Shown: positions 1 to 15,697, counted from the stretch's first letter. The stretch: DNA of 15,863 nt from an uncultured Deinococcales bacterium (GCA_964247135.1 CAXTTL010000107.1:1-15863); one strand, 5' to 3'. Notes: generated by a model from the sequence alone, not told the origin. Made by a program: numbers and translations.

Positions 1-1315
1 TCTCGAGCATCAAACCAATCTCAAGCACGTGCGCATCCGAAGCTCGAGCGCCAACGATTTGCAGTCCAACGGGTAAACCGGCAACTTTTGTAAATGGCAT
101 TGAAAGTGTGGGCAGCCCAACCAAACTAAACGGTGCGGTCAACTCGAGGAAGGCGTTTCTGTGGGTTACAGTGCCACTCTCGAGGGTGACATGGGTTGTG
201 CCGCGTTTTGGTGCTGGAAGTGGCGCGGTAGGCTGAATCAGGGCATCACAGGCGTTCAGGGTTGCCTCGAGTCCAGCCCGAACTTGGCGGCGCAGTTGGC
301 GAGCTTCCAAATATTCGCTGGCACAAATGCTGGAGCCTGCTTGAAGTGGTGGAAGAACGCCTTCGGAAAATCCTTGACCGCCAGCTTTCAAGGCTTCACG
401 GTGAACATATGCGGCTTCGGCGCGAACGATGGGCGTGTAACTGGATGACGCCAACTCGAGGTCAATTGGATTCAGGTCAACCACACTTGCGCCAGCGTGG
501 CGAAGTTGCTCGAGTAAACTTTCAAAACCACGGCGCACTTCAACGCCCAAACGACCTTCGAGCCAAACTCGAGGCACACCAAATGTCAGGTTTTTGGGAG
601 ATTCGAGGTTTTGAATTGGGAAATCTCGAGCCGCCAAAACCTCGAGCACGGCGTGGGCGTCGCTTACGTTTTGCGTAATTGGTCCAGCGTGATCGCAAGT
701 CATGGACAGATGCAAAGCACCCTCGAGCGGCACAACACCAAAAGTTGGCTTAAACCCGACCACGCCATTAAAACTGGCTGGAATCCGAATTGACCCGCCC
801 GTGTCCGAACCCAAACTGGCAAAGCCGATTCCTGCCGCGACGCTGGAGGCACTTCCGCTGCTCGAGCCGCCGGCTTGCAAACTTGGGTCGAGGGCGTTTT
901 TCACGTCGCCAGTATTTGGGTTTTCGCCCGTCACACCGAGCGCAATTTCGTGCATGTTGGTTTTACCAAGAATCACTGCGCCAGCGTCACGAAGTCTTTT
1001 GACCGCGCCCGAGTCGCTTTGAACAGCTTGGAACTCGAGTGGCAAAATGGCGTTTGTTCCTGCTTTGGTTGGCATTTGAAAAACGTTGAACAAATCTTTG
1101 ACCGTGATTGGAACACCGTGCAGCCTTCCTCGAGAAGTGCCCGCTTTGGTTTCCTGATCTAAAACTTCGGCGGTTTCTCGAGCTTGGTCGCTTGCCAGAA
1201 ACGCAAAAATGTTCAGGTCAGCTCGAGTTTCGTTGATGGCTAAAGCTTGATTGACGAGTTGGAGGCTTGAAGTCTCCCCTGTTTGAATGTGCTTCGCGGC
1301 TTCAATTAGGGTCAT
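1..1315 (-). CDS. Amidase signature (AS) family protein, 3' end truncated by the window edge
   Basis: Translated by hand from the ATG at 1315: MTLIEAAKHIQTGETSS...LHGVPITVKDLF...ILGKTNMHEIALG...AGGSSSGSASSVAAGIGFASLGSDTGGSIRIPASFNGVVGFKPTFG...LTAPFSLVGLPTLSMP...GLPVGLQIVG. The Lys/cis-Ser/Ser catalytic motifs are present and the N- and C-terminal segments are in the same frame, reaching base 2. It is missing from the ORF track because there is no stop codon in the window. Confidence 0.93.
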   Translation of the reverse strand, partial: MTLIEAAKHIQTGETSSLQLVNQALAINETRADLNIFAFLASDQARETAEVLDQETKAGTSRGRLHGVPITVKDLFNVFQMPTKAGTNAILPLEFQAVQSDSGAVKRLRDAGAVILGKTNMHEIALGVTGENPNTGDVKNALDPSLQAGGSSSGSASSVAAGIGFASLGSDTGGSIRIPASFNGVVGFKPTFGVVPLEGALHLSMTCDHAGPITQNVSDAHAVLEVLAARDFPIQNLESPKNLTFGVPRVWLEGRLGVEVRRGFESLLEQLRHAGASVVDLNPIDLELASSSYTPIVRAEAAYVHREALKAGGQGFSEGVLPPLQAGSSICASEYLEARQLRRQVRAGLEATLNACDALIQPTAPLPAPKRGTTHVTLESGTVTHRNAFLELTAPFSLVGLPTLSMPFTKVAGLPVGLQIVGARASDAHVLEIGLMLE

Positions 1316-1321
1316 GGCGCA

Positions 1322-1327
1322 ATTTTA
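1322..1327 (-). promoter_or_regulatory. -10 box TAAAAT for probable leaderless transcription of the amidase
   Basis: Minus strand reads TAAAAT-tgcgcc-ATG (6-nt spacer); no Shine-Dalgarno. Confidence 0.65.
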
Positions 1328-1332
1328 CGCGT

Positions 1333-1338
1333 TAGACT
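1333..1338 (+). promoter_or_regulatory. -10 box TAGACT for probable leaderless transcription of the lipid kinase
   Basis: TAGACT-aaccaa-ATG(1345), 6-nt spacer; no Shine-Dalgarno. Confidence 0.65.
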
Positions 1339-1344
1339 AACCAA

Positions 1345-2229
1345 ATGCTTCAAGTCATTCTCAATCCCACCGCCGGCGGTGGGCGTGCCAGCCGTGCCAT
1401 TCCCGCGCTGCAAACGGCGCTCGAGGCGAAAAAACTCGAGTACAACCTGTTTTTGACCGACAAGGCTGGGGCGGCTCGAGATTTTACAAGAAATTTACCT
1501 GGCAATGATCCAATTGTGGTGGTCGGGGGCGACGGCACGCTGCATGAGGTGATCGCCAGTTTGCTCGAGCAGACCAACCATTCAGACCGTGCGGTGGGCG
1601 TGATTCCGCTCGGGACGGGTGATGATTTTGCCAGGGGGGCGAAAATTCCGTTAAACAACCTTGAGGCGGCGGTGAACATCATTGCGAGCGGCAAGCTCGA
1701 GGTTTTGGACGCGGGACGGATTGGCTCTAAGGCGTTCATCAATGGTTTTGGCAGCGGTTTTGACGCGCTGATCGCCAGGGAGGTACGCAATGCGCCCAAG
1801 TTTCTTCCAGGTTCAATGCGTTATTTGTGGGCGATTCTGGCAGAACTCTCTAAGCTCAGTCCTCGACCCGCCAAAGTGATGGCGGATGGCGTGGTGGTGC
1901 ATGACGGGGCGGCGTTGCTGATTGCGGTCATGAATTTGATCGGTTACGGCGGCGGTCTAAAAATCGCACCCAATTCCGACCCCAAGGACGGCTGGCTCGA
2001 GGTGGTTATGGCGGGAAGGTTTGGCAAAATGGGCGTGCTGGGAATCTTGCCCAAGTTGCAAAAAGGTGCCCATCTTGGACATCCTGAAGTCAAAGTGGTT
2101 CGGGCAAAAGAGGTCAGAATCGAATGGCAAAAACCAGTTGCCGCGCACGTGGACGGCGAGTTGCTCGAGATGGGAACGGTTTTTGAGGCTTCGGTGTTGC
2201 CAGGAGCGATTAAGTTCTTCATGCCTTAA
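1345..2229 (+). CDS. Diacylglycerol/lipid kinase family protein (YegS/BmrU-like)
   Basis: Motifs ILNPTAGGG, VVGGDGT, IPLGTGDDFAR, GSGFDA, YGGG, DPKDGWL, HVDGE. Confidence 0.92.
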   Translation: MLQVILNPTAGGGRASRAIPALQTALEAKKLEYNLFLTDKAGAARDFTRNLPGNDPIVVVGGDGTLHEVIASLLEQTNHSDRAVGVIPLGTGDDFARGAKIPLNNLEAAVNIIASGKLEVLDAGRIGSKAFINGFGSGFDALIAREVRNAPKFLPGSMRYLWAILAELSKLSPRPAKVMADGVVVHDGAALLIAVMNLIGYGGGLKIAPNSDPKDGWLEVVMAGRFGKMGVLGILPKLQKGAHLGHPEVKVVRAKEVRIEWQKPVAAHVDGELLEMGTVFEASVLPGAIKFFMP

Positions 2230-2254
2230 AAATACTTTTGCCACAAGACTCGGC

Positions 2255-2260
2255 TAAAAT
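2255..2260 (+). promoter_or_regulatory. -10 box TAAAAT, probable leaderless start of the histidine kinase
   Basis: TAAAAT-accttc-ATG(2267), 6-nt spacer. Confidence 0.6.
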
Positions 2261-2266
2261 ACCTTC

Positions 2267-4321
2267 ATGAGCGTCCAAACCAGCAAACTCCCTCGAGCCT
2301 CACAATCAGCTCGAGGGTGGCAATTGCCAATCGCGGCATTGCGTTGGTTGTTCAAACCATTCTCGAGATCGTTTCCAATGGCGCTCTTGGAGGTTTTGTT
2401 TACGGCGTTGGCGCTGCAATCGCTGGCGTTGTGGTTGACCAGGTTTTACGCGCCGCCGGTGCCAGAATTGCTGGCTTGGTTTGCCGAGCACAGCTTGTGG
2501 GTGTTGGGCGTGTTAAGACTCGAGAGTTTCAAAGCGGATGTTTGGTGGCGAGCCATCCGAATCCCGTTGTTTGGGGCGTTGGCTGGCGGCTTGTTTGGCT
2601 TGCTCGGTCATGAGATCACACCGCTTTTAAAACCGACTCGGGCTTTTTTTGAGTTTCAGGCGTTGACCGCACCCGATTTATCCAAGGCGGGATTGGAGTT
2701 GCTGGCGCTGAACACCAGCTTGCGTTTTGTGTTCGCTTATGCGCTGCGGGCGACCTGGCTCGAGGGGCGCCAGTATTTGCGTTGGCGTTTGACGGCATTA
2801 ACGCTGGGGGCAGGTGTCTTTGCCAGCGCCATGATTACGGTCATTCCTGGTTTGATCGATTTGATTCGCAATCCCAGCCAAGCCGCTTCGGGTACAGCAC
2901 TGACCGAGGCTCGAGAGTTGTCATTGTCGTTTCAACCGTTTGGTTTGGTCAACCCAGACCATCAACAGTTGCAAAATGTGCTCGATTACCTCGAGCGCGA
3001 TGCGAACAAAATGCGCTTGATTGCGCTTGAGGGCGAGACTGAAACGCACCGCCGACCAGCCAACCGCATTTCGTTGATTCTCAGCGCCGATGGTCGGGTG
3101 ATCGCCTCGAGCCGCCGTGAACGCTTTCCAATCGGTCAATGGATTTCTGACCCGAATACCGAATCTTGGAACGAAATTCGGGCTTTTAACGCCACCGGAC
3201 GTTGCCGCGCCATCAATGTCGGGACTGAAATGCTTTCGGGCTGTCCGGTGCAACAAGACAGCGGCGGTTTTGAAACCACCGTTTTGATCGCGGCAATCGT
3301 GCGCCCGATTGACACCGCCAGCGTTTCGTTTTCTGATGTCGCCGCCAAAATCACCCACGATTTCACACGGGTTCTGGACACCCTCTCCCAAGGTTTGTTG
3401 CCGTTCTTTTTGAGCCTCGGGCTGATTGGCTATCTTGCGGCAAGACGCCTCACCACGCCGCTCGAGCGACTGCTGGCGGGTTCCAAAGCGCTCGAGGCGG
3501 GTCAGTTAAACGTGCGCGTGCCGCTGGAATCTCAAGATGAAGTCGCCAGGCTCAGCGAGGGGTTTAACGCGATGGCGAGCAAACTCGAGCAGAATGTTTC
3601 TGAACTCGAGCGTGAAAAATCCACCGTTGAGACTTTGCTCAAAGCCAACCGTGCCCTGACCGCCAGCGCCAGCCACGAGTTGCGCACACCGCTTGCCGTC
3701 ATGCGGGCGCACCTGGAGAGTGCCGAAATGCGCAACGAGAGTTTGTCGAGCGAGCAAACCAAAGTTTTGCAAAACGAGGTCTTGCGCCTGGAAGGTTTGG
3801 TCGAGGATTTGTTTGCGCTCTCACGCGCCGAACTCGGGCAGCTCGAAACCAAACTCGAGAGTGTCAACGTCTTCGAGAGTGTGACGCGCAGCGTCAAGGC
3901 GCTCGAGCCGATGGCAAGGCAGGGGCAGATTATCCTCATCAACGCCGTGCCAGAAAACCTGCCAAACGTCAAAGCCGACCAGAAACGCTTGAGCCAAGTC
4001 TTGATGAATTTACTGCAAAATGCCCTGCGTTACACGCCCGAAGGCGGACTGGTGAAACTCGAGGCGAAACTGGTGCGGCGCGAGATTTGGTTTACGATAG
4101 AAGACACCGGCATCGGCATCAGCCCAGAAGAACTCGAGCATGTTTTCGAGCCGTTTTACCGCACCGACCCAGCCCGAACCCGCACCACTGGCGGCAGCGG
4201 TCTTGGCTTGTCGCTGGTGCGCGAATACGTCGAGGGCATGGGCGGCAATGTTCGTGCCGAAAGCATCAGCGACCAGGGCAGTCGGTTTACGCTCGAGTTA
4301 CCCGTTTGGCGCGGGGTTTAA
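2267..4321 (+). CDS. Membrane-bound sensor histidine kinase (several TM helices, sensor domain, HAMP, HisKA, HATPase_c)
   Basis: HAMP (LTTPLERL...DEVARLSEGFNAMASKLE), H box ASHELRTPL, N box NLLQNALRY, G1 DTGIG, F box EPFYR, G2 GGSGLGL. Confidence 0.93.
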   Translation: MSVQTSKLPRASQSARGWQLPIAALRWLFKPFSRSFPMALLEVLFTALALQSLALWLTRFYAPPVPELLAWFAEHSLWVLGVLRLESFKADVWWRAIRIPLFGALAGGLFGLLGHEITPLLKPTRAFFEFQALTAPDLSKAGLELLALNTSLRFVFAYALRATWLEGRQYLRWRLTALTLGAGVFASAMITVIPGLIDLIRNPSQAASGTALTEARELSLSFQPFGLVNPDHQQLQNVLDYLERDANKMRLIALEGETETHRRPANRISLILSADGRVIASSRRERFPIGQWISDPNTESWNEIRAFNATGRCRAINVGTEMLSGCPVQQDSGGFETTVLIAAIVRPIDTASVSFSDVAAKITHDFTRVLDTLSQGLLPFFLSLGLIGYLAARRLTTPLERLLAGSKALEAGQLNVRVPLESQDEVARLSEGFNAMASKLEQNVSELEREKSTVETLLKANRALTASASHELRTPLAVMRAHLESAEMRNESLSSEQTKVLQNEVLRLEGLVEDLFALSRAELGQLETKLESVNVFESVTRSVKALEPMARQGQIILINAVPENLPNVKADQKRLSQVLMNLLQNALRYTPEGGLVKLEAKLVRREIWFTIEDTGIGISPEELEHVFEPFYRTDPARTRTTGGSGLGLSLVREYVEGMGGNVRAESISDQGSRFTLELPVWRGV

Positions 4322-4714
4322 ATTCGGAGCATAACTTACCCAATGCAAGTAATCATCGATCAAAAATTCTTCAACGGCAATTGGCAAAACCGTTTCTTTT
4401 GAAACCCACTGCCAGTCATCAAGCGCCTCAAAACCACTGCTCGAGAATTGGTATAAAAATCCAGTTTTACCAATCCTTGGTGTGCCAGCGCTGTAAATGA
4501 TTTGCGGCGGGGCGGTGTCGGTTTTGAGTTCCCACTCGAGGTTGCCCTGCGAATCGGGAATGCCCCGCATGGCAAAAGCGATAGACAGCATTCGGTGGTG
4601 TGTGGCATAAACCGCGTGCTGTTGATCTCGAGCCTCACCGACACCCGTAGCTTGGTGAGGCTCGAGATGATCGAGCTTTTGGCTTGAGCCGTGATAGAGA
4701 ATCTGGGGTGTCAA
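4298..4714 (-). CDS. Hypothetical protein, possible ADP-ribosyltransferase fold (Arr-like motif order)
   Basis: Open frame ending at 4298. Likely start is TTG 4714 or GTG 4726; the tracked 4837 start overlaps the upstream gene. Motifs LYHGS, VYAT, GFLY, QWVS. Its 3' end overlaps the kinase 3' end by 24 bp. Confidence 0.6.
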   Translation of the reverse strand: MTPQILYHGSSQKLDHLEPHQATGVGEARDQQHAVYATHHRMLSIAFAMRGIPDSQGNLEWELKTDTAPPQIIYSAGTPRIGKTGFLYQFSSSGFEALDDWQWVSKETVLPIAVEEFLIDDYLHWVSYAPNLNPAPNG

Positions 4715-4764
4715 AATCCATCTCACTTTGCAAGCATTGCTCAAGGGCGCAGCAAGCAGCGCCC

Positions 4765-5481
4765 CTACTTCACTTCGCAGGAGAATTTTTTGAGTTTGTC
4801 CTTGACGATTTTTTCGACATCGCTGGGCAGCTTGCATAAATCTTTGGCTTTTAACCCGACGTTGCCCTTAAACTCTGGAATCGTCAGGTCGGCTTGCATC
4901 ACGCCTTTGTCATTAAAATACTGCACGCGGTACAAATTAAAGCTTTTATCGAGCGCCCAGACCTTCACCCGTCCAAACTCGAGGTTGCTGCCTTTTTTCG
5001 GGGTGGCATCGATCACGTAAGCTTTGCCGTTTGGCGTGTCGTCCATCGTGACGGGTTTGAAATCGAGTTTTTCTTTCGGGATACTCGATTGCAGGTCGCC
5101 GAACGATTCGATACCGCCAAAGCTGACGCCGCCGACTTGGGCTTTGGCGATTTTGGTGATCGTGACCTGGTTGGTGAGGAACAAGTAATTGTAAAAATTG
5201 TCATTGTCGATGATCGAAACGTTGTCCGCCAGGGTGTCGGGCGCGTTGAAGGTCAAACGGGTCAGTTTCAAGCCTGGGATGGCTTGGACATCCAGATCGA
5301 GCTTGATTTTCTGGGTATCGTCGCTGATCGTGCCAACGGCTTTGGCTTTGTAATCTTTGAGGTTTTTTTGAACACCCTCGAGTTTGGTCAGCACGTCGCT
5401 GGCGCTTAAGGTTTGGGCGAGGGCGAGGGTGGCGATGCTCGAGATGATGATAAAACTGGTCAGAACGGGTTTGAATTTCAT
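4765..5481 (-). CDS. LolA-like periplasmic outer-membrane lipoprotein carrier/sorting protein
   Basis: Signal peptide ending ALA-Q, then LSASDVLTKLE, beta-rich body, AYVIDATPK...VKVW...LYRVQYFN pattern; GGAGG Shine-Dalgarno upstream. Confidence 0.7.
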   Translation of the reverse strand: MKFKPVLTSFIIISSIATLALAQTLSASDVLTKLEGVQKNLKDYKAKAVGTISDDTQKIKLDLDVQAIPGLKLTRLTFNAPDTLADNVSIIDNDNFYNYLFLTNQVTITKIAKAQVGGVSFGGIESFGDLQSSIPKEKLDFKPVTMDDTPNGKAYVIDATPKKGSNLEFGRVKVWALDKSFNLYRVQYFNDKGVMQADLTIPEFKGNVGLKAKDLCKLPSDVEKIVKDKLKKFSCEVK

Positions 5482-5571
5482 GGTTTCCTCCGAAATTTTT
5501 TAAAGACAATCCAACTGACTCGAGTATCGGCGTCTGATGTGAGAAGCCAAGACCCTCGAGCTAAACAAAAT

Positions 5572-6528
5572 TTAAGGTTGTGGGAACAAACTTTCGATGT
5601 TCAAACGGTAGCCAATTTGGAAACCGTAAGAGAATTGTCCAGCCGCGCTCGAGCCGCCAAAACCTCGTGCCAGCAAGGCGCCAGGTCCAAGGTTGAACTC
5701 GAGGTTGGTGCCAAAACGAAGCGGCAAGGCGACATCTTCGCGCCAGGGTTCAAAGGCAAAAAAGACGGTCAAATTGCCAATTTTTTCTTCGTCAACATTT
5801 AAGAAGTCGTAACTGGCATCCAAGCCAAGACCATAGGTAAAACCGTTTGGGTTGCCGCCGAGCAAGATTTCTGCGCCCAGACGGTACGGGGCATCTTCGG
5901 GAACAAATTTGACGCTCAGCGTCGCCCCAAAGGTCAAACCACCGGCTTGCGGGGCGAGCAAGGCAGCGCCAGCCAAGGTGAAGGCATCGGAACGCGTCTC
6001 GAGTCCGAGCATGATTCTGGAGCTTTCTGGCACGTAACGCCCGCCAAATTTGACGGTCACGTTTCTCGAGAGCCGATACTGGGCATTTGCACCAATCAGG
6101 AAACTGTTGTTGCTGGCAGGTTCGGGGTTGCGCTCGAAGATGCTGAAGCGGTTGGCGGCAAAACCCGAGGCAGTCCAGAATCCGCCGTTAAGTTCCAAAG
6201 CGATGGGTCCGAGTGTGCCGCGAAGGTTGGTGCGGAAGCGCACGCCGCCAGCAAACACCAGCTCAAAACTGGTGTCCGTCGAGGCGCGACCCAGAGGTCC
6301 AAAGTCAAAACCCGCGCCGATCAAAACGCCAGCCCGTTCGGTGCTGAGGGCAAAACCGAGGTTGAGGTCAGGATTCTCGAGCACGCTGAGGTTGGAAAGC
6401 GCGATTTGCGCGGTGAATGGAAACGCCCCTGGGAACGTTCCCGTACCAAAAGTGACCTCGAGTTCGGTGGCTCTGGCATTCGCGCCAAAGGCAGTGAATA
6501 AGGTTAGAAAGATCAGAAATCGTTTCAT
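5572..6528 (-). CDS. Putative outer-membrane beta-barrel protein (hypothetical)
   Basis: Signal peptide ending ARA, Gly/aromatic-rich alternating amphipathic strands, near-terminal FSYGFQIGYRL. Confidence 0.7.
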   Translation of the reverse strand: MKRFLIFLTLFTAFGANARATELEVTFGTGTFPGAFPFTAQIALSNLSVLENPDLNLGFALSTERAGVLIGAGFDFGPLGRASTDTSFELVFAGGVRFRTNLRGTLGPIALELNGGFWTASGFAANRFSIFERNPEPASNNSFLIGANAQYRLSRNVTVKFGGRYVPESSRIMLGLETRSDAFTLAGAALLAPQAGGLTFGATLSVKFVPEDAPYRLGAEILLGGNPNGFTYGLGLDASYDFLNVDEEKIGNLTVFFAFEPWREDVALPLRFGTNLEFNLGPGALLARGFGGSSAAGQFSYGFQIGYRLNIESLFPQP

Positions 6529-6535
6529 GCCTCAA

Positions 6536-6541
6536 AGTTTA
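6536..6541 (-). promoter_or_regulatory. -10 box TAAACT, probable leaderless start of the beta-barrel gene
   Basis: Minus strand TAAACT-ttgaggc-ATG(6528), 7-nt spacer. Confidence 0.5.
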
Positions 6542-6649
6542 CGCCACAAACCTGAAGCCCGCACGGGCAAAGGCAGGGAGAAACGAATGGTTCAAGAAAC
6601 AGTGAACGGGCATCAAGTTAACATTTGAAACCTGAGACAGAATACGAGC

Positions 6650-7435
6650 ATGGAACTAAAAACCGAATTCTCGAGCCGCAAAGAAATGACGGATTACCTG
6701 GCAGAGCAACTCAAGGGTTTGTACTCGGGCGAAGCCATCCCAAACGAAATGTTTGGTGGTCGGCGTGCGGCACTGGCGCAACTCGAGCAATTTAAAGCAC
6801 ACGGCTACGGCAAACGCAACTTTGTCGGGTCGTTCACCTCTAGACTCTCGGCGTACTTGCGTCACGGCGTGCTGTCGATTGCCGAGGTCGCGGAACACAT
6901 CAGGGCACATGCCAGCGGGCGTGAAAAGCTCGAGTTTTTAAAGCAGCTTTGCTGGCACGAATTCTTCTCGTTGGTTTTGGAACAAGAGGGCGCGGCGGTG
7001 CTCGAAGACCTTGAAGCGCCAAAATACGCCGCAAAGTGGCAAGCCGAAATGCCCGAAGACATTCTCGAGGCACAGACAGGTTTACCCTGTGTCAATGCTT
7101 GGGTTCAAAAATTGATCGACACTGGATATTTGCACAACCATGAGCGGTTGTGGTTCGCGGCTTACGTCACGCACTGGCGCAAAACCCATTGGAAGGCGGG
7201 ATATGACTTTTTTCGTGAGCACCTGCTCGACGGTGACATTGCCAGCAACGCCTTGTCCTGGCAGTGGGTGGCAAGCACGTTCAGTTCCAAACCATATTTT
7301 ATGAACCAGCAAAACATCGAAAAATATTCTTCTGACGCGTACTGCTCGAGTTGCCGCGCGGTTTGTCCTTTTAGAAAATCGTATCCCGACCTCGAGCGCG
7401 AATTGTTCGGTCAAGATGCCGGTTGGTCGTCATGA
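6650..7435 (+). CDS. Short photolyase/cryptochrome FAD-binding domain protein (NewPHL/SPL-like) with 4-Cys motif
   Basis: TSRLSAYLRHG, TGLPC, GYLHNHERLWFA, LLDGDIASNALSWQWVAST, YCSSCRAVCPF; only 261 aa with no N-terminal antenna domain. Confidence 0.88.
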   Translation: MELKTEFSSRKEMTDYLAEQLKGLYSGEAIPNEMFGGRRAALAQLEQFKAHGYGKRNFVGSFTSRLSAYLRHGVLSIAEVAEHIRAHASGREKLEFLKQLCWHEFFSLVLEQEGAAVLEDLEAPKYAAKWQAEMPEDILEAQTGLPCVNAWVQKLIDTGYLHNHERLWFAAYVTHWRKTHWKAGYDFFREHLLDGDIASNALSWQWVASTFSSKPYFMNQQNIEKYSSDAYCSSCRAVCPFRKSYPDLERELFGQDAGWSS

Positions 7436-7857
7436 GTGCGCTGGTGTGGCTGCACGGCGCTAGCCTCTCGAGCACCGACCCTGCATTGCTGGCGAACCCG
7501 AACGCGCCAGTCATTTTTGTCTTTGACAAACCATTCCTCGAGCAGACCCGTATCGGTTTTGGGCGTTTGCAATTTATCTTTGAAAGCCTGATCGAATGCC
7601 TTGAAGCACGCGAGCATCGGGTGTGCGTTGGCGTGCAAAGCGAAGAGATTGTTCGGTTCGCCCACTCGAGCAACTGTACCGAAATTCATGTGACGTTTGT
7701 TGCCAGCCCAGAATTGGAGCACACCATTGCCGCACTCGAGAATGCTGGTTTAAAAGTGGTGCTGCATCACCTCGAGCGGCTGACCAGTTATTCGGGGCGG
7801 GTGAAGCGCTTTAGCACCTTCTGGAAGCAAGTCGAGCGCGAGGTTTGGGAGGCATGA
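7432..7857 (+). CDS. Stand-alone photolyase alpha/beta (antenna-like) domain protein
   Basis: ATGA overlap with the upstream stop gives start 7432. LVWLHG..L...[19 protein letters not shown] and KRFSTFWK resemble the photolyase N-terminal domain. Confidence 0.78.
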
Positions 7858-8012
7858 AAACCAAGACTTTTGGCGGCGGCAAAAAACCTTCAGATCGCGC
7901 CAGCAAAATCTGCCCTGTCTGTCAGAAACCTTTTGCCTGGCGCAAAAAATGGGCGAGGGATTGGCAGAATGTCATTTACTGCTCTGAAAAATGCAAGAAA
8001 TCTCGAGTTTAA
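7854..8012 (+). CDS. DUF2256 family small Cys-rich protein (52 aa)
   Basis: Not in the ORF track. ATGA-coupled to the previous gene. [52 protein letters not shown] matches the DUF2256 pattern CxxC-x2-PF.WRKKW..DW..V.YCS..C. Confidence 0.9.
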
Positions 8013-8665
8013 GAATTCTTGAAAAGCGCCAGACTTTCAACATAATCCGATACCGCCCAAGTCGCCCCAGCCTCGAGCAGCGCGGCTTTGGATTGCATGG
8101 TGGCAACACCCACCACCCGAGCGCCCGCGCTGACCCCCGACTTCACGCCAATCAAGGAATCTTCAAACACCAAGCAATCCTCGGCAGGGACACCCAATTT
8201 GCTCGCCCCCAGCAAAAACGGTTCGGGGTCGGGCTTACCACGTTTGACATCTTCACCCATGACCCGAATCGGAAATCGAGACTCGAGGTTTAAATCAGCC
8301 AAAACAAATTTGGTGTTTTTAATATCGGCACTGGTCACCAGCGCCATTTTGATTTCTCGAGCCTCCAAATAGTCCAGAAACTCGAGCAAGCCCGCGACTG
8401 GCACGATTTTCCCCTTGGCAATTTTCCTGTACTTTTCTTCTTTGTACTCGTGAAACTCATCCGCACTGGCATCGTCGGGAAACACGTTGCCAAGCAGACT
8501 CTCGACGATGGCTTTGGTTTTACCGCCGTGCACTTTGGATTCGGTTGGCGAAAGCGTGTAACCGTAACGCTCGAGCAGGCAGACCTCCCAAGCCTGATGG
8601 TGCAAATGTGCATTTTCGGCGAGTGTGCCGTCCATGTCGAACAAAACCGCTTTAAAATCAATCAT
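8009..8665 (-). CDS. HAD-superfamily phosphatase (subfamily IA, beta-phosphoglucomutase-like)
   Basis: Motifs FDMDGTL, VTSA, GKPDPE, FEDS..G. ATGA overlap with the MFS stop. Confidence 0.92.
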
Positions 8666-9822
8666 GAATTCACCCGTTTTTTGGCGCTCGAGAGGCGTTG
8701 AATCAAGAAAACCGAAAAGACCATTAACACCGAGACAATGACATACGCGACTGGCAAGCCTTGCAAGCTTCTGCCTGACAGGAATTCAATCACCAAAGGT
8801 GTTGCCACACCGCCAAAATTGGCGCTGGCAATCAAGATGCTGGCATTGGTTAAACCACCACCCAAGGCTTTGCTCATCCAAACAAAACCCGTTGGGAAAA
8901 TTGGACCGCACGCGATGCCCGCCAAGGTGTACGCCACTGGCGCGATTGCCGCGACGCCCGTGAACGACAAACACAATGCCACCAAGATCGCACTAGCCAG
9001 AACAATGCTCGAGGGTGAAAACCTTGTGGTGAACGGCGCGATCAAAACCCGACCGAGCGCCAATCCGCCCCAGAACAAGGAATTGACAAACGCGGCATTT
9101 TGTTCAGACCAAGAAAAGACTTTGACCAAATGCGAGGTTTCAGACGAAGCCGCGCCGACTTCAACCAGCACATACGTCCAAAACAACAACAAAAAAGCAC
9201 CCAAGATTGGAAGGTTGAGTGGCACGGCTTTTTTAACGCTCGAGCTTTCGTTTTTGGCATTCAAGGCATCGAGTTCACGGCTCGAGAAGAACAAAAACAA
9301 CACCAACAAACTCCCTACAAACGCGATCAGAAACGGGATGCTGTAATTCCCTGGCGTTAAACCGATCAAGAGCGGTCCAAGAATCGCGCCGACCCCAAAC
9401 AAGGCATTCACGATGTTGCTCATGGCGGCGCCACGTTCGCCAAAGCCGCTCGAGAAGAGGTTGTTGATGCTGACATCGATTCCACCAAAACCCAAACCCA
9501 TGACAAACGCCGCCAGCAACACCAGAATCCAGGACGGCGCAAACGCCACACCCAGGCAACCCAGCACCAAAAATAAACTCGAGAGGCTGAGTCGCAATCT
9601 TGTCCCAAGCCATTGCTCGAGTTGGGTTTGCGCCAAAATTCCCAGCACCGAACCCGCAAAATGCGCACTGACCACCGTGCCAGGATTGCCCAGAAAACCC
9701 ATGCCGCTCGAGAGTTCAAAGCGTTTGGTGAACATCAGGTACGCCGGTCCGTACATGGCTTGGATTGCACCGATGCAGGTGAAGGCGACAAAACCACCGA
9801 TGGTTGCATTACGAGAAAGCAC
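8662..9822 (-). CDS. MFS transporter (FucP/TsgA-like sugar permease group)
   Basis: About 12 hydrophobic segments; GFGGID..N, NALFGVGAILGP, FWGG.A.GR, GPIFP motifs. Start placed at GTG 9822, 5 nt after TATACT; TTG 9894 is the alternative. Confidence 0.85.
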   Translation of the reverse strand: MLSRNATIGGFVAFTCIGAIQAMYGPAYLMFTKRFELSSGMGFLGNPGTVVSAHFAGSVLGILAQTQLEQWLGTRLRLSLSSLFLVLGCLGVAFAPSWILVLLAAFVMGLGFGGIDVSINNLFSSGFGERGAAMSNIVNALFGVGAILGPLLIGLTPGNYSIPFLIAFVGSLLVLFLFFSSRELDALNAKNESSSVKKAVPLNLPILGAFLLLFWTYVLVEVGAASSETSHLVKVFSWSEQNAAFVNSLFWGGLALGRVLIAPFTTRFSPSSIVLASAILVALCLSFTGVAAIAPVAYTLAGIACGPIFPTGFVWMSKALGGGLTNASILIASANFGGVATPLVIEFLSGRSLQGLPVAYVIVSVLMVFSVFLIQRLSSAKKRVNS

Positions 9823-9827
9823 GGATG

Positions 9828-9833
9828 AGTATA
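9828..9833 (-). promoter_or_regulatory. -10 box TATACT, probable leaderless start of the MFS-HAD operon
   Basis: Minus strand TATACT-catcc-GTG(9822). Confidence 0.55.
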
Positions 9834-9844
9834 ACCAAATTGTT

Positions 9845-9888
9845 GTGGCTCGAGGTTTTCTTGAACTTGACGCAATTGCTCGAGCCAC
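9845..9888. repeat. 10-bp inverted repeat built on two CTCGAG sites just after the amidohydrolase stop
   Basis: GTGGCTCGAG (9845-9854) and CTCGAGCCAC (9879-9888) are exact reverse complements with a 24-nt loop. Confidence 0.6.
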
Positions 9889-9890
9889 CT

Positions 9891-10922
9891 TCAACGGTCT
9901 TCAAAACCCAACAGCACATTCACGGCGTTGACACCAATTTCTTCGACGGCATAACCGCCTTCCATCACAAAAAGCGTGGGTTTCTCGAGCTTCGCAATTC
10001 GAGCGCCAATTTTCAGGTAATCGGGCGTCTCGAGCAAAAACTTCGAGATTGGATCGTGTTTGAACGTGTCCACCCCGAGCGAAACCAGCAGCACATCTGG
10101 CGCGTACCGCTCGAGTTGTTGGCAGGCTAGCTCGAGGTTGGCGTTCCAAGTTTCAAAATTTGTGCCGTGAGGCATGGGGTAATTGATGTTGAAGCCTTCG
10201 CCAGCGCCACTGCCAGTTTCATCGGCATAGCCCAGAAAGTACGGGTATTCCACGCTCGGGTCGCCGTGTAGATTAATCAGCATCACATCGGCGCGGTCAT
10301 CAAAAATGGCTTGCGTGCCGTTGCCGTGGTGGTAATCAATGTCAAGAATCGCAACTCGAGCCGCGCCTTGATCCAGAAAATACTGCGCCGCAACCGCCAC
10401 GTTGTTGAAAAAACAGTAGCCGCCCATGTAATCGGCTGCCGCATGATGCCCTGGCGGGCGACACAGTGAAAACACGCTGCTCGAGCCGTTCTTGACCAGT
10501 TCCGCGCCCGTCAACGCCACGTTCACGCTGCTGGTGATCGCCTGCCAGGTGGTGGGTGTGATCGGCGCTGCCGCATCCAAACTGTAAAACCCAAGCTTGG
10601 CTTCAATCGCCACAGGAACTCGAGTTTGATTCATCTGGCGCACCGCCCAGGTGTACGGCAGCGCGTGCTTGGCATGACCCGCCGCTGTCCACTGTGCCCA
10701 AGCACCCTCGAGAAACTCCACGTAAGGCGCGGTGTGAATGCGTTTGATCGGCTCGAGACCAAAGTCTTTTGGCGCGAGAATTTCGCCCAGATTGACCGCC
10801 TGAACTCGAGCGTGAATGATTTCGGCACGGCGCGGCATTTCAAAAACAGGAACGAGACCGTCCGCGACCAGTTCAAAATCGCCGTGTTGGAGTTTGTGGT
10901 TTTCGGAGTAAATGGTTTTCAT
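9891..10922 (-). CDS. aphA: Acetylpolyamine amidohydrolase (histone deacetylase family)
   Basis: RPPGHHA, GGYCFFNN, DIDYHHGNGTQ, YPYFLGYADE, SLGVDT, MEGGY; N-terminal ELV.GLVP.FE.P.RA typical of APAH; adjacent to a polyamine ABC transporter. Confidence 0.88.
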   Translation of the reverse strand: MKTIYSENHKLQHGDFELVADGLVPVFEMPRRAEIIHARVQAVNLGEILAPKDFGLEPIKRIHTAPYVEFLEGAWAQWTAAGHAKHALPYTWAVRQMNQTRVPVAIEAKLGFYSLDAAAPITPTTWQAITSSVNVALTGAELVKNGSSSVFSLCRPPGHHAAADYMGGYCFFNNVAVAAQYFLDQGAARVAILDIDYHHGNGTQAIFDDRADVMLINLHGDPSVEYPYFLGYADETGSGAGEGFNINYPMPHGTNFETWNANLELACQQLERYAPDVLLVSLGVDTFKHDPISKFLLETPDYLKIGARIAKLEKPTLFVMEGGYAVEEIGVNAVNVLLGFEDR

Positions 10923-11007
10923 AAGATTTTTTGATTTCTAATCTTAAATTAAGCTCGAGCAACGGCATTTTTATTTTTAAATTTGAGATGAATAACTGGT
11001 CAGTCCA

Positions 11008-11126
11008 CCCTCATCCCCGACCCTTCTCCCACAGGGAGAAGGGAGTTTGGGTTCTCTACACGTGTAGCTCGAGGTTTTGTCCTTCTCCCTGCGGGAGAAG
11101 GTGGCGAGGAACGAGCCGGATGAGGG
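11008..11126. repeat. 119-bp REP/boxC/CIR-like extragenic palindromic element
   Basis: Terminal inverted repeat CCCTCATCC/GGATGAGGG. Two internal hairpins: CCCTTCTCCC-aca-GGGAGAAGGG (11021-11043) and CCTTCTCCC-tgc-GGGAGAAGG (11081-11101). Confidence 0.8.
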
Positions 11127-11186
11127 CTTCAGGTGAGGGATAACCCATTTTCTTGCACAGACAAAGAATTTTCTGCGCGGCTCGAG

Positions 11187-12239
11187 TTACCTTTTCAACC
11201 TCGTCCAAACCTTGTCACGCAGCGCGATTGAGGCGTTGGAACAAATTTTGTTGGGACGGAAGCGGCTGGTCAGGTTGGCTGGCGTGTTCACGGCGGGGTC
11301 AGCGTTCAATGAGGCGTCAAAGAATTTGCTCGAGCCTTTGATGCTGTTGTTGTAGCCTGTGAAATTGCTGGCGACGGCGATGGCGGCTGGACTCATCATC
11401 CAGTTGATGAACTTGACGGCTTCGACTTTGTTCTTGGCGGTTTTTGGCACAGCAAAATTGTCGTTCCAGAAACTCATGCCCTCTTTGGGGTAAACGAACA
11501 CGGCGGTTTTGAGTTTTTCTTTGGTGCGGTGCGCCGCGCCGTTCCATTGGTGGTGCATGATGACCTCGCCTGCTTGCATTCTTTCAATCGTGCCGTCGGA
11601 ATTGTACGCCGCCAAGTACGGTTTTTGCTTCTCCAAGAGCGCCAGAATCTTCTCACCGACTTTGGCATCGGTGGTGCAAGTGTCCGTGCCGAGGTAAAAC
11701 GAGGCGGCGTTCCACATCTCGAGCGGGTCGTTGAGCGCAACAATCTGACCTTTTAAAACCTCGGGCGGTTCAAAAAAGGACTTCCAGGAATCCTCGAGTT
11801 TGCCGCCTGGAACTCGAGCGGAATCGTAGGTGAAGCCCGTCACGCCCCACATGTACGGCGCGGAATAATCTCGGGTCGCGTCGAAGGGTGGTTTGATTGA
11901 GAAGCTTTGCACGTTTTTGAAATTGGCGAGTTTTGACGCACCAATTTTCTCGAGGATGCCTTCGTCAATCATGATTTTGACCATGTAATCGGAGGGCACG
12001 ATCACGTCGTAACCCGTCGCGCCCGCTTTGAGTTTTGCCAGCAGCGATTCGTTCGAGTCGTAGACATCGAGGTTAACCCGCACACCCGTTTCTTTTTCGT
12101 ATTTTTTGAGCAAATCTGGTGGAATGTAATTTGACCAGTTGTACAGGTTGATGGTGGCTTTGGGCGCTTGCGCGTAACCAATCGCAGCCAGCGCGGGCAG
12201 GGTCAGAATTCCGAGGGCTTTGAGCAGAGACTTATTCAT
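11187..12239 (-). CDS. potD: Polyamine ABC transporter substrate-binding protein (PotD/PotF family)
   Basis: LYNWSNYI, YDSNE, GYDVIVPSDYM, PYMWG, YPKEG...W.DN. Start at ATG 12239 after GGAGG, followed by a signal peptide. Confidence 0.9.
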   Translation of the reverse strand: MNKSLLKALGILTLPALAAIGYAQAPKATINLYNWSNYIPPDLLKKYEKETGVRVNLDVYDSNESLLAKLKAGATGYDVIVPSDYMVKIMIDEGILEKIGASKLANFKNVQSFSIKPPFDATRDYSAPYMWGVTGFTYDSARVPGGKLEDSWKSFFEPPEVLKGQIVALNDPLEMWNAASFYLGTDTCTTDAKVGEKILALLEKQKPYLAAYNSDGTIERMQAGEVIMHHQWNGAAHRTKEKLKTAVFVYPKEGMSFWNDNFAVPKTAKNKVEAVKFINWMMSPAAIAVASNFTGYNNSIKGSSKFFDASLNADPAVNTPANLTSRFRPNKICSNASIALRDKVWTRLKR

Positions 12240-12266
12240 ACAACCTCCATTGACAACAGGCAAAAC

Positions 12267-13055: not shown

Positions 13056-13939
13056 GTCAGGCTGCCTTTGCCTCGAAAGCGCAGGGCGTAAATCAGCATG
13101 AAAATCAAGACCACCGCCAGTAGAGCAAAAGAGAGCGCCGCGCCGAATGGCCAGTTTCTCGAGATGCCAAATTGTTGTTGAATCAAATTGCCGATCATCA
13201 GGGTTTTTGCGCCGCCCAGCAATTCTGGAATAAAAAACGTGCCGAGCGCTGGGACAAACACCAATATGCAGCCTGCGACCATACCAGGCATGGCAAGAGG
13301 AATCACGATGCGCCGCAACGTCTGCCAGCGATTGGCGTACAAATCGTATGCCGCCTCGAGCAAGCGCCAGTCAAATTTCTCGAGGCTGGTGTAAATCGGT
13401 AAGACCATGAAGGGCAAGAAGGCGTAAACCAGCCCGATTTGCACGGCGATGGGCGTGTACATCAGGTTGATTGGGGTGCTCATGATGCCGAGGCTGTGGA
13501 GGCTCGAGTCGATCAGACCGCCGTTTCTGAGCAGTAAAATCCAGGCGTAAGTGCGCACCAGCAGGTTCGTCCAGAATGGAATGGTGATTAAGAGCATTAG
13601 CCAGGTGCGGTGCTTGGGGGTTTGCAGGGAAATGTAAAACGCCACTGGAAACGCCACCAACAGCGTTAAAACCGTGGTGATAGCTGCCAACTGAAACGAC
13701 CTCGAGAAAATCGAAAGGTAATCGCTGTTGAACACCAAATGATCGCTAAGGTCGCGGTCAAACAAGAATTTGAGATAGGCTTCGGGCGTGTAGCTGCCCC
13801 ATTTCACGCCGCCAAATTGTCCAGCCTCGAGCCATGACATCAGCGCCATCAAGAGCATCGGCAACAGCATAAACACAAAAATCAATATTGCCGCAGGTGA
13901 AATCAGCGCGTACCGTCCGAGCAAAGGATCACGTTTCAT
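13052..13939 (-). CDS. potB: Polyamine ABC transporter permease I
   Basis: [43 protein letters not shown] overlaps on both sides. Confidence 0.92.
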
Positions 13940-15006
13940 GATTCCGCCTCGAGAATCCGCACGGCATCGGGTGGAATAATAAGTTTGACTTGCTCGCCAA
14001 CGCTGACGATTTTGGCTGCGCCGCCATGATTCTGCATTCGCACCCGAAACACTTCTTTGGCAACCTCGAGATAAACCACGGTGTCTGTGCCAACGTAAAC
14101 AACCTCACGAACCACAGCATTCAAACCCGCGCCGTCTCGCGCGATCTGGGCGCGTTCGGGACGCACGGCAACATCGACGCTCGAGCCGAGCGGTCTGGAA
14201 TGCGTCACCTCGAGCCATTGTGTGTCGGGCAGGCGCAAACCGTTTGCTTCGGACGCGCCCGTTAAAAAGTTGGTCTCGCCAATAAAATCCGCAACATAGC
14301 GGCTGCGCGGAAAATCATAAATTTCGGTGGGCGTGCCGATCTGCTCGAGCTTGCCGTTTTTCATCACCGCAATGCGGTCAGACATCGTGAGCGCCTCTTC
14401 TTGATCGTGGGTGACAAACACGAACGTAATGCCCGTCTCGAGTTGCAAGCGTTTTAACTCGAGCTGCATTTCCTTGCGCAGTTTCGCGTCGAGCGCCGAG
14501 AGGGATTCGTCGAGCAGCAAAACTTTGGGACGGTTTGCCAGCGCCCTCGCCAACGCCACACGTTGTTGCTGACCGCCAGAAAGCTGGGCGGGTTTACGGG
14601 ATTCAAACCCCGTCAACCGCACCAACTCGAGCATGTTAGCCACAATTTTTTGAACCTCGAGCTTGGGTTTATGCTGCATTTCCAGACCGAACCCAATGTT
14701 TTGCGCCACGCTCATGTGCGGAAACAGCGCATAGCTTTGAAAAACCGTGTTGACCGGACGCTCGAACGGCATTAAACCCTCGAGATGCTGCCCGTACAAG
14801 CTGATCGAACCTGTGGTCGGTTGCTCGAAACCCGCAATCAAACGCAGCAAAGTGGTTTTGCCGCAGCCCGAAGGTCCAAGCAGCGTGAAAAATTCGTTTG
14901 AGCCAATCTCGAGACTCACATCCTCGAGTGCTGTCACCGCCCCGTCGCCAGAACCAAACACCATTCCAATGTTCTGAATCACAATGGCGTTTGAATCTGC
15001 GGTCAT
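13936..15006 (-). CDS. potA: Polyamine ABC transporter ATP-binding protein
   Basis: Walker [37 protein letters not shown]-terminal TOBE-like region. Start set at ATG 15006 (MTADSN). Confidence 0.93.
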
Positions 15007-15108
15007 CTTGAGCGGGAATTCTAACCCGAAACCCGAACGCCGTGTTGCACTGTACAGCGTGCGTTTTGATGCTCGAGCTTTAACGCCCAAGCCAGAACCC
15101 TCAGAACT

Positions 15109-15117
15109 TGATATGAT
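15109..15117 (+). promoter_or_regulatory. Extended -10 (TGnTATGAT) upstream of the thioredoxin-fold gene
   Basis: TG-A-TATGAT about 50 nt before ATG 15169; GGAGG Shine-Dalgarno at 15160-15164. Confidence 0.45.
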
Positions 15118-15168
15118 AAAGGAAGTTGATTCGTTCGGGCAGACGCTCGAGATTCCTTTGGAGGCTGA

Positions 15169-15678
15169 ATGCAAGTTTTAGAAAATGGAAGTCCCGCACC
15201 TGTTTTTACTGCCACGGATTTGAACGAGAAAACGCTCGACCTGCAAAAAGCCTTGGCAACAAGTCCTGTGCTGGTCGTGTTCACGCATCCGGTCATCAAC
15301 GCCTCGAGGTTGGTGGTCGGGTACTTGCGCCGCATGGCGGAAATTGCGCCGAACTTACCGATCTGGATTTTTTCTGAAGGCACAGACGCGGAAACCAAAA
15401 AATACGTGGGCGAAGGTGACAAGAAATACCTCGAGATGCCCGTGGTGCAAGACAATTGCGCCGTGGCAAAATTGTTTGACGCCAAATTTCTGCCGACCAT
15501 GTACTTGATCGGGCAAGACGGCAAAATTATTAAAGGCTACTCGGGTTTTAACCGCGATTGGCTCAACTGGATGGCGCTCGAGACGGCGAATTTGACGGGT
15601 GGAAAGCCCAAAGAATTGATTTCGGACGGGGACAACAAGGGCTTTTACGAACTTGCTGAACGTGGTCCTTGCGCGTAA
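15169..15678 (+). CDS. AhpC/TSA (redoxin)-like thioredoxin-fold protein lacking the CxxC motif
   Basis: [21 protein letters not shown], cis-Pro region [14 protein letters not shown]; Shine-Dalgarno present. Confidence 0.8.
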
Positions 15679-15697
15679 AAATACTCGAGACGATGTT

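Follow-up and report, generated by a model that had tools for sequence, protein, structure and literature searches.

The window analyzed in this study is the whole of a 15,863-nt stretch of DNA (CAXTTL010000107.1:1-15863, assembly GCA_964247135.1). It is densely populated by the palindromic hexamer CTCGAG, which is almost certainly a true highly iterated palindrome of the lineage, a DNA-level feature that recurs along the whole chromosome about once every 150 bp. An earlier note on this DNA had estimated about 130 copies, some 30-fold more than the approximately four expected; exact counting revealed 130 copies compared with 4.4 predicted from composition (53.3% GC), a 30-fold excess. None of 200 dinucleotide-preserving shuffles of the window reached this number (mean 3.09, standard deviation 1.65, maximum 8). 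The near-variants CTCGGG and CCCGAG were found 10 and 4 times, respectively, in agreement with the earlier estimate of about 13 and no obvious enrichment, and GAGCTC was absent. Distances between successive sites had a mean of 122 bp and a median of 107 bp (minimum 15, maximum 560). All four bases occurred on each flank, as had been described, with mild symmetric preferences only.

The 15 genes called in the window encode an amidase, a YegS/DAGK-type kinase, a HAMP histidine kinase, a LolA-like protein, a photolyase-type FAD domain, a HAD hydrolase, an MFS transporter, a histone-deacetylase-family protein and an ABC-transporter operon, together with an AhpC-like match too weak to pass the Pfam cut-off and two genes without a Pfam match. 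A Pfam scan of these 15 open reading frames (ORFs) detected no methylase or nuclease, consistent with the earlier statement that no cognate enzyme is encoded in the window, and no Rfam match was found for the window. The genic sites comprised 73 in the CTC-GAG (Leu-Glu) phase, 19 as xCT-CGA-Gxx and 26 as xxC-TCG-AGx, and 73 of the 96 Leu-Glu dipeptides were written CTC-GAG. The cluster between the histidine-kinase and LolA-like genes (Table 1) shows that the motif is just as dense where the DNA is untranslated.

Table 1. Features of the window that bear on the distribution of CTCGAG
Feature	Position	Strand	Remarks
CTCGAG set	2..15689		130 copies; 118 inside the 15 called genes, 12 outside; first copy 2-7, last copy 15684-15689
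Amidase gene, running off the contig end	5..1315	-	Pfam Amidase; 15 sites (11.4/kb) in all three phases (8, 6 and 1)
Intergenic sites, histidine-kinase gene to LolA-like gene	4440..4666		Four sites: 4440, 4535, 4627, 4661
Photolyase FAD-binding ORF	6650..7432	+	261 aa; profile positions 1-128 of 203
Histone-deacetylase-family gene	9894..10922	-	Pfam Hist_deacetyl; 10 sites
Intergenic sites	10954..11186		Three sites: 10954, 11068, 11181; 11068 lies inside the dispersed repeat
Intergenic dispersed repeat	11003..11155		~135 bp; internal inverted repeats; one CTCGAG
ABC-transporter ATPase gene	13939..15174	-	Pfam ABC_tran and TOBE_2; 14 sites (11.3/kb), 11 in the Leu-Glu phase

Analysis of the assembly holding the window (G000; 5,091,702 bases in 386 contigs, 52.7% GC, 84% completeness) revealed 33,925 copies of CTCGAG, or 6.66 per kb, 24.7 times the number predicted from composition. 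It was the commonest hexamer of the assembly, followed by its own overlaps (14,850); the second most enriched palindrome, TTTAAA, reached 3.7-fold. The observed/expected ratio (O/E) of CTCGAG was 35, 14, 3.5 and 1.24 under Markov models of order 1, 2, 3 and 4, respectively; the high-order values are uninformative because most occurrences of the sub-words CTCGA, TCGAG and TCGA belong to copies of the motif. The excess over composition and the order-1 ratio both lie above the level of approximately 15-fold that characterizes a palindrome of the HIP1 type. Each of the 297 contigs above 5 kb carried the motif at 2.6-10.5 sites per kb (median 6.8). Binned by GC content between 32% and 60%, the DNA outside a few site-free islands gave an O/E relative to local composition of 23-27 throughout. 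These per-contig densities, together with the family and class genomes described below, ruled out confinement to one contig or assembly. The earlier description of CTCGAG as similar to HIP1, the highly iterated palindrome (HIP) of cyanobacteria, and as a genome-wide DNA-level phenomenon was therefore upheld well beyond this contig.

The unit under enrichment is the 6-mer itself, as had been proposed, since TCGA outside CTCGAG occurred at an O/E of 1.05; this value also rules out TCGA as the real unit. The AvaI-type word CYCGRG was rejected (CCCGGG 0.07; CCCGAG and CTCGGG approximately 1.4-fold), as was a longer repeat unit of the repetitive extragenic palindrome (REP) or miniature inverted-repeat transposable element (MITE) type, given flanks near background composition beyond ±3. 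An extended palindrome was ruled out by complementary -1/+1 bases in 21.5% of non-coding sites, compared with approximately 27% expected. The flank preferences amounted to G in 39% of sites at -1 and A in 37% at -3, with the mirror image on the 3' side; when non-coding sites only were considered the preferences were A at -3 (43%) and G at -1 (35%), mirror-symmetric and weak.

The distribution of sites with respect to genes was examined using 4,369 gene calls in G000, made with a crude purpose-made caller and covering 85% of the DNA. The density was 6.59 per kb in coding and 7.06 per kb in non-coding DNA. Coding sites occupied all phases (17,901 CTC-GAG, 4,173 xCT-CGA-Gxx and 6,546 xxC-TCG-AGx) and numbered 28,620, compared with approximately 3,970 after synonymous shuffling (7.2-fold); the shuffle, performed gene by gene, left the encoded protein unchanged and preserved each gene's codon usage, a usage that the motif already inflates. 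The excess persisted in every subset examined, including non-coding DNA and the two phases that do not specify Leu-Glu, and it outlasts the amino-acid-preserving null under which the earlier note had considered that it might disappear. CTC-GAG was used for 77% of the 23,195 Leu-Glu dipeptides, compared with 11% expected from codon usage. The dipeptide O/E was 2.34 for Leu-Glu and 1.005 for Glu-Leu; this over-use in one order, with the other at par, indicates that the DNA-level pressure has altered protein sequences. Between genes the density was 7.5 per kb in divergent, 8.2 in tandem and 9.4 in convergent intervals, with an O/E of 37-46 relative to local composition. These values exceed the genic O/E, so the enrichment is greatest where coding constraint is absent. 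That divergent promoter regions are so densely populated favors a role at the level of DNA over one at the level of RNA. A modest CTCGAG peak (10-12 per kb) was also observed genome-wide in the first 50 bp past stop codons, and this peak and the richness of convergent intervals may reflect a link with terminators.

Analysis of site spacing in G000 revealed a mean of 148 bp, a median of 108 bp and a coefficient of variation of 0.96. Pairs less than 20 bp apart were scarce (1,355 compared with 3,349 expected), and spacings of 50-200 bp were in excess. In 300-bp windows, 1,973 were empty compared with 2,268 under a Poisson distribution and 106 held at least six sites compared with 275, giving a variance-to-mean ratio of approximately 0.82. 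Across the 386 contigs no periodicity other than the codon period (3 nt) was detected within 300 bp, and no origin-type cluster was found (maximum nine sites per 300 bp), although dnaA itself was not located. We also examined interference between neighboring sites by a test that conditions on the protein, comparing the fraction of Leu-Glu dipeptides written CTC-GAG with the distance to the nearest other site. This fraction was 0.41 at 7-12 bp, 0.58 at 12-20 bp, 0.72 at 20-30 bp, 0.77 at 30-50 bp, 0.83 at 50-100 bp and 0.86 at 100-200 bp, and a second drop was confined to rare regions poor in sites. Heterogeneity between regions would give the opposite trend, so the sites truly interfere over tens of bases; a potential site is used less when a neighbor lies within approximately 50-100 bp, which indicates that regional coverage is upheld rather than each site alone. 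Such interference is predicted by a benefit that saturates with coverage and not by a repair bias that acts on each site separately, and hairpin avoidance between palindrome copies may contribute at the shortest distances.

Conservation of the sites was analyzed by aligning the window to five congeneric species (85-86% nucleotide identity), a check that the earlier note had proposed for orthologues. In these congeners 80-87% of the window sites were intact, compared with 41-45% of all other hexamers, and 14-24 sites were present in the congener only, about balancing the losses. Where the amino acid was conserved, the codon was retained more often inside than outside a site for CTC (91.6% and 58.7%), GAG (96.4% and 66.9%), TCG (94.9% and 69.6%) and CGA (93.3% and 61.6%), so that synonymous change was 5-9 times rarer within a site. 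Non-coding sites were kept in 17 of 27 comparisons, compared with 38% for controls. A site was present in at least one of the six genomes at 123 alignment columns and in all six at 54; control words were mostly singletons. In the other genera g2, g4 and g5, over aligned stretches that include the histone-deacetylase-family gene, 40-68% of site positions were common, compared with approximately 17-26% for controls. In genus g3 (70% identity) the shared fraction fell to 17-21%, approximately the control level, with the density still at 4.6-6.5 per kb. Retention is therefore strong but not permanent, and the density is upheld by turnover. Changed sites involved all six positions, the outer ones most often (TTCGAG, CTCGAA), and included conservative amino-acid changes. 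Gains arose from many different neighbor hexamers, and the congener alignments revealed no transition hotspot at the central CpG among lost or gained sites.

The affiliation of the genome was examined using its elongation factor EF-G, which scored approximately 1,118 bits against the PDB group of 1dar, 1efg and 2bm0, presumably Thermus thermophilus EF-G, compared with 950 and approximately 894 bits for the next groups. This comparison fits a Thermus-related lineage of the Deinococcota, in line with the Thermus/Meiothermus-like affinity suggested earlier. The histone-deacetylase-family gene was tried as a taxonomic marker and failed, with Pseudomonas and Mesorhizobium as best named relatives; EF-G was taken instead.

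All 18 other genomes of the family, from five genera, carried CTCGAG at 4.3-6.8 sites per kb (calculated with rounded genome sizes) over a GC range of 44% to 55%. A class-wide survey of 201 genomes then mapped the motif across relatives, as the earlier note had suggested, and revealed a range from avoidance to 6.8 per kb. The Deinococcus-like genus g7 (83 genomes) contained only 26-1,010 copies per genome (0.01-0.2 per kb) and avoided GAGCTC too; genus g9 (30 small, Thermus-like genomes) had approximately 0.6-1.6 per kb, near the reversed control word. Intermediate densities were found in family f2 (39 genomes, 0.3-2.6 per kb), family f4 (9 genomes, 0.7-2.9 per kb) and the Meiothermus-like genera g13, g14 and g15 (25 genomes, 1.4-3.5 per kb). 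The class thus spans avoidance, neutrality, moderate enrichment (2-3.6 per kb in g13-g15 and in genome G197) and the extreme level of this family, and CTCGAG was the top palindrome in every enriched sample. Codon-aware tests were applied to sampled DNA of two distantly related moderate carriers. In G115 (genus g13, 28.6 kb) Leu-Glu was written CTC-GAG in 64% of cases compared with 15% expected, with 65 coding sites compared with 14-21 after shuffling and 3.0 non-coding sites per kb; in G197 (120 kb) the corresponding values were 73% compared with 23%, 345 compared with approximately 103, and 2.8 per kb. The counts in both were 3.3-3.6 times the synonymous shuffle, which shows that moderate densities are the same phenomenon. 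In the g9 control G043 (100 kb) no excess was seen (84 sites compared with 88-94 shuffled; CTC-GAG 21% compared with 29% expected). Related genera thus carry a weaker form of the enrichment. G197 (genus g35; loci L183-L188; 3.6 per kb, 10 times composition) belongs to the same family, f3, as g7 and is its lone enriched member, the main genus avoiding the hexamer 10-100-fold. This contrast within one family exceeds 100-fold and is useful for gene finding.

Site-poor DNA and avoided palindromes were also examined in G000. Gaps longer than 1.5 kb numbered 16 and included islands of 27-40% GC. Site-free islands were found at C4:51524-53437 (locus L169) and on C13, C70 and C135; their products include STAND/AAA_16-TPR ATPases and an O-antigen ligase, and one island next to a tRNA gene encodes a fusion of reverse transcriptase with a trypsin-like peptidase. 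These islands look like acquired defence or surface DNA. The idea that low-GC DNA is generally free of the motif was only partly true, as a few islands were site-free but the enrichment was near-constant across GC bins. A 16S gene was not found in G000 using a universal primer pattern. Most other palindromic hexamers were strongly depleted: 18 of the 64 palindromic hexamers had at most 50 copies, among them GGGCCC (1), CGGCCG (3), AGGCCT (4), CGTACG (5) and GGATCC (7), and the tetramers GGCC (380 copies) and CTAG had O/E values of 0.016 and 0.07, respectively. This extreme avoidance suggests a long history of many restriction systems. GAGCTC, the SacI site and CTCGAG read backwards, was absent from the 5.09 Mb of G000 and present in 3-25 copies in most family genomes.

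The search for a cognate methyltransferase used six Pfam families (PF00145, PF01555, PF07669, PF02384, PF02086 and PF12950), two proteins as queries against 31 genomes, and local comparisons of all sequences with one another. Most of the genomes searched were 57-94% complete and specificity is not readable from sequence, so that a negative result here means 'not found' and is not proof of absence. G000 encodes three large Eco57I/MmeI-type or SNF2-fused methylases, four to five N6_N4, two C5, one D12 and one N6_Mtase enzyme. No methyltransferase orthologue common to the family genomes examined was found with the six Pfam families. The N6_N4 enzymes on contigs C189 and C36 of G000 were sporadic, no more than two other family genomes carrying close relatives of them, and the only N6_N4 pair at 80% identity linked contig C207 of G000 with G009. 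PF01555 had no match in the single-contig closed genome G011 and PF00145 none in G008. C5 enzymes from five genomes shared 26-36% mutual identity, and the PF07669/PF02384 (Eco57I/N6_Mtase) proteins of approximately 450-530 aa from five genera were 21-32% identical. The TaqI-type specificity domain (TaqI_C, PF12950) was found in none of five family genomes and the XhoI nuclease family (PF04555) in none of 19. The sole XhoI-family match in the order, in G021, adjoins an N6_N4 methylase whose relatives (62-73% identity) were found in 22 of 30 genomes of the non-enriched genus g9 and in none of the 3 family, 25 g13-g15 and 83 g7 genomes sampled; this methylase was ruled out as the factor because it is anticorrelated with the enrichment. 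The correlation with a CTCGAG or TCGA methyltransferase that the earlier note had called for was thus sought, and no XhoI-type nuclease, TaqI-type domain or tracking methylase emerged in the family genomes examined. The solitary methylase that it had named first as a mechanism fared poorly, since the family methyltransferases examined were sporadic or non-orthologous.

A further candidate was a pair on the minus strand of contig C320 of G000, a D12 methylase (2155-2985) followed by a SacI-family nuclease (1064-2155; PF09566, 29.7 bits). Orthologues of the two were found in G011 (83% and 72% identity) and G005 (75% and 51%), and the nuclease or a distant relative in 11 of the 31 genomes including G000 (10 of 18 other family genomes and 0 of 12 outside). 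The pair was set aside as a CTCGAG factor because it is more plausibly tied to the missing GAGCTC. It may be related to that absence, which we note as a lead only. The link is not general, as two other genomes of the class with strong RE_SacI matches each keep more than 2,000 copies of GAGCTC.

Several observations on the window concern features other than the motif. The ORF at 6650-7432 matched only the C-terminal FAD-binding domain of DNA photolyase in Pfam and may encode a truncated or unusual photolyase/cryptochrome relative. The best named relatives of the histone-deacetylase-family gene were from Pseudomonas and Mesorhizobium (57-64% identity) and cyanobacteria (59%), with no Thermus-like genome among them, which suggests horizontal acquisition. 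The intergenic repeat, which is of MITE or REP type, gave 84 further blastn matches in G000 and has many copies in congeners. Comparison of 9434-11777 and 4754-9249 with congener G002 revealed identity that shifts between neighboring segments from 83% to 91-93%, and these jumps are compatible with recombination between species.

Our verdict on the data as a whole is that the motif is kept by selection or drive for regional coverage. Maintenance of this kind would involve a sequence-specific protein that reads CTCGAG on duplex DNA chromosome-wide, with a benefit or drive that would saturate at approximately one site per 100-200 bp. That CTCGAG forms a spacing-constrained chromosomal 'self code' at about this density, with a reader other than a conventional methyltransferase (an uptake/recombination or a nucleoid protein), seems to us somewhat short of an even proposition. 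The readings weighed here are not mutually exclusive, and the spacing evidence makes an uptake/recombination tag and a nucleoid protein somewhat more likely. As a single role we tentatively rank first a tag for transformation or recombination, by which the motif would identify DNA as 'self' and favor kin DNA in natural transformation and homologous recombination. The tag would act when DNA is taken up or processed, or would stimulate recombination in a Chi-like manner, and could be kept by weak selection and recombination-coupled drive, as recent experiments on cyanobacterial HIP1 suggest. Uptake sequences are typically evenly spaced, present in every frame, shared among relatives, missing from foreign islands and apt to distort the proteome, and CTCGAG would fit this pattern. 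As far as the accessible text of two reports goes, the sole experimental evidence on any HIP favors the transformation reading: HIP1 sites raise natural transformation in a methylation-dependent manner, with uptake/processing and Chi-like effects proposed (bioRxiv 10.1101/2024.09.10.611283), and HIP1 has been argued to be a DNA-uptake sequence (PMC13756078). ComEC (PF03772) and DprA (PF02481) were present in five of five family genomes tested. A number of points weigh against a transformation tag, however. ComEC and DprA are near-universal, so that finding them says little; neither a receptor nor another reader of CTCGAG was identified, and PD-(D/E)XK helicase-nucleases, considered as a Chi-like reader, were rejected because genomes with and without the enrichment carry them. 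The uptake sequences known so far are 9-12 bp long and occur at approximately 1 per kb, whereas CTCGAG is shorter (6 bp) and 5-7 times denser; Thermus, the best-studied relative, is not known to show sequence preference in DNA uptake, and the Thermus-related genus g9 lacks the enrichment. The HIP1 effect depends on methylation, yet no conserved methyltransferase was found here. Divergence data alone cannot part selection from biased gene conversion, and a nucleoid-structuring protein would account just as well for the even spacing, the exclusion zone of approximately 20 bp and the weak, symmetric flank preferences.

That last possibility, in which CTCGAG is the site of an abundant lineage-specific nucleoid-organising protein needing one site per 100-200 bp for compaction or domain structure, is an unlikely but serious contender. 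It accords with the under-dispersion and distance-dependent interference of the sites, with mirror-symmetric non-coding flanks such as a dimer contacting approximately 12 bp would leave, with a density that is equal in all genomic contexts, and with the same conclusion drawn for HIP1 in the accessible text of Xu et al. 2018 (PMC5861425). No candidate protein was identified in this analysis, however, the codon period was the only periodicity within 300 bp, and the deficit below 20 bp may instead reflect hairpin avoidance, because any pair of palindrome copies constitutes an inverted repeat. Also unlikely, and placed next in our ranking, is that CTCGAG is the target of a solitary or recurrently replaced methyltransferase with an epigenetic function such as strand discrimination in repair, replication control or protection, a role that has been put forward for HIP1 and the alternate HIPs. 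A need for coverage would then explain the even spacing, and each family genome carries several methyltransferases of specificity not readable from sequence. Precedents in the portions of the literature available include a matching methyltransferase in every cyanobacterial HIP genome (Elhai 2015, PMC4390886), an orphan CTCGAG methyltransferase in Nocardia (Blow et al. 2016, PMC4752239) and methylated CTCGAG in hot-spring communities, where the carrier taxon is not stated (bioRxiv 10.64898/2026.06.24.734251). The enzymes found here, by contrast, were sporadic or divergent with no family-wide orthologue and no TaqI_C domain, the relatives of the XhoI-side methylase of G021 sit in non-enriched g9 and in none of the enriched genomes sampled, and the missing CpG transition hotspot in loss products speaks against 5-methylcytosine at the central C. 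Much less probable is that the sites are a functionless by-product of sequence-biased repair or gene conversion of near-cognate hexamers. Repair of the very-short-patch type does skew oligonucleotide frequencies, and the divergence data do not separate conversion from weak selection. Nevertheless, one-off neighbors were undepleted (the transition neighbors TTCGAG, CCCGAG and CTTGAG at 1.2-1.8 times composition), gains came from many different neighbors, and a site-autonomous process predicts Poisson spacing or clustering and not under-dispersion with interference; for HIP1, the excerpted text of Xu et al. likewise decides against this reading (PMC5861425). An artefact of codon or dipeptide usage, library or assembly is an explanation to which we attach next to no weight. 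CTC and GAG are common codons in high-GC relatives, and a Thermus-like genome reaches 3 times composition from codon usage alone; even so, a codon or dipeptide artefact is ruled out by non-coding densities equal to coding ones, the intergenic O/E, the synonymous shuffle and the behavior of the negative control G043. Against limitation to one contig and assembly artefact, both raised in the earlier note, 19 separately assembled species genomes carry the motif, one of them as a single contig, with conserved positions inside ORFs.

No prior report of CTCGAG as a highly iterated palindrome was found in a search that excluded subscription journals and supplements. The hexamer itself is the recognition sequence of the XhoI and PaeR7I restriction-modification systems, but targets of this type are normally avoided, as in genus g7, whereas here the site is 25-fold enriched and the XhoI nuclease family was not found in the 19 family genomes. 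XhoI would cut these genomes to fragments of approximately 150 bp or, if the sites are modified, not at all. The same hexamer also serves a non-restriction function as the motif of an orphan methyltransferase in Nocardia; according to the accessible part of that report it clusters at dnaA-dnaN (Blow et al. 2016, PMC4752239), in contrast to the even distribution observed here, with at most nine sites per 300 bp and no conserved methylase found. A second comparison is with the DNA uptake sequence (DUS) of Neisseria and the uptake signal sequence (USS) of Pasteurellaceae. These are over-represented genome-wide in all frames, spaced more evenly than chance, shared by relatives and scarce in recent acquisitions, and can build up by uptake bias and recombination. 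CTCGAG resembles them in its genome-wide presence in all frames, its even spacing and its absence from foreign-looking islands. It differs in being a 6-bp palindrome with weak flanks at 6.7 per kb, whereas DUS and USS are non-palindromic, 9-12 bp long and present at approximately 1 per kb.

The closest likeness is to the HIPs, until now regarded as peculiar to cyanobacteria and as linked to two conserved methyltransferases, with a function unresolved for some thirty years. In the alternate cyanobacterial HIPs (GGCGCC in Calothrix PCC 7103, GCsGC, rCCGGy, GGGATCCC and TCGATCGA) another palindrome replaces HIP1, and GGCGCC is also a 6-mer; within the part of the source available to us, these occur at approximately 1-2 per kb, each with a matching methyltransferase and in cyanobacteria only, and CTCGAG is not among them (PMC4390886). 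HIP1 itself (GCGATCGC), for which a 10-90 kb periodicity has been reported, is like CTCGAG a hyper-abundant short palindrome, tens-fold over-represented in coding and non-coding DNA (PMC4390886 and PMC5861425, accessible text). In the same excerpts it is conserved between species beyond codon expectation, changes most at its outer positions and sits in genomes that otherwise avoid palindromes. In contrast, HIP1 is a cyanobacterial 8-mer, whereas CTCGAG is a 6-mer of 67% GC without a GATC core, in a genome that is Thermus-related by EF-G, gave no match to the photosynthetic reaction centre (Photo_RC) and holds only 47 copies of CGATCG. Unlike for HIP1, a conserved cognate methyltransferase was not found, and dipeptide usage is measurably distorted. 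If the 'self code' reading is true, the demand for sites is strong enough to reshape the proteome, and HIP function becomes directly testable outside cyanobacteria, as the moderate carriers include culturable members. The class-wide gradient from g7 to this family provides a natural experiment, in which phylogenetic profiling could identify the responsible gene and cultured relatives could serve for bench tests. Taken together, these comparisons extend this kind of phenomenon to a Thermus-related lineage, unrelated to the cyanobacteria, with a different and shorter word at a several-fold higher density (6.7 per kb compared with 0.3-2.7 per kb for HIP1 in the accessible table of Elhai, PMC4390886).

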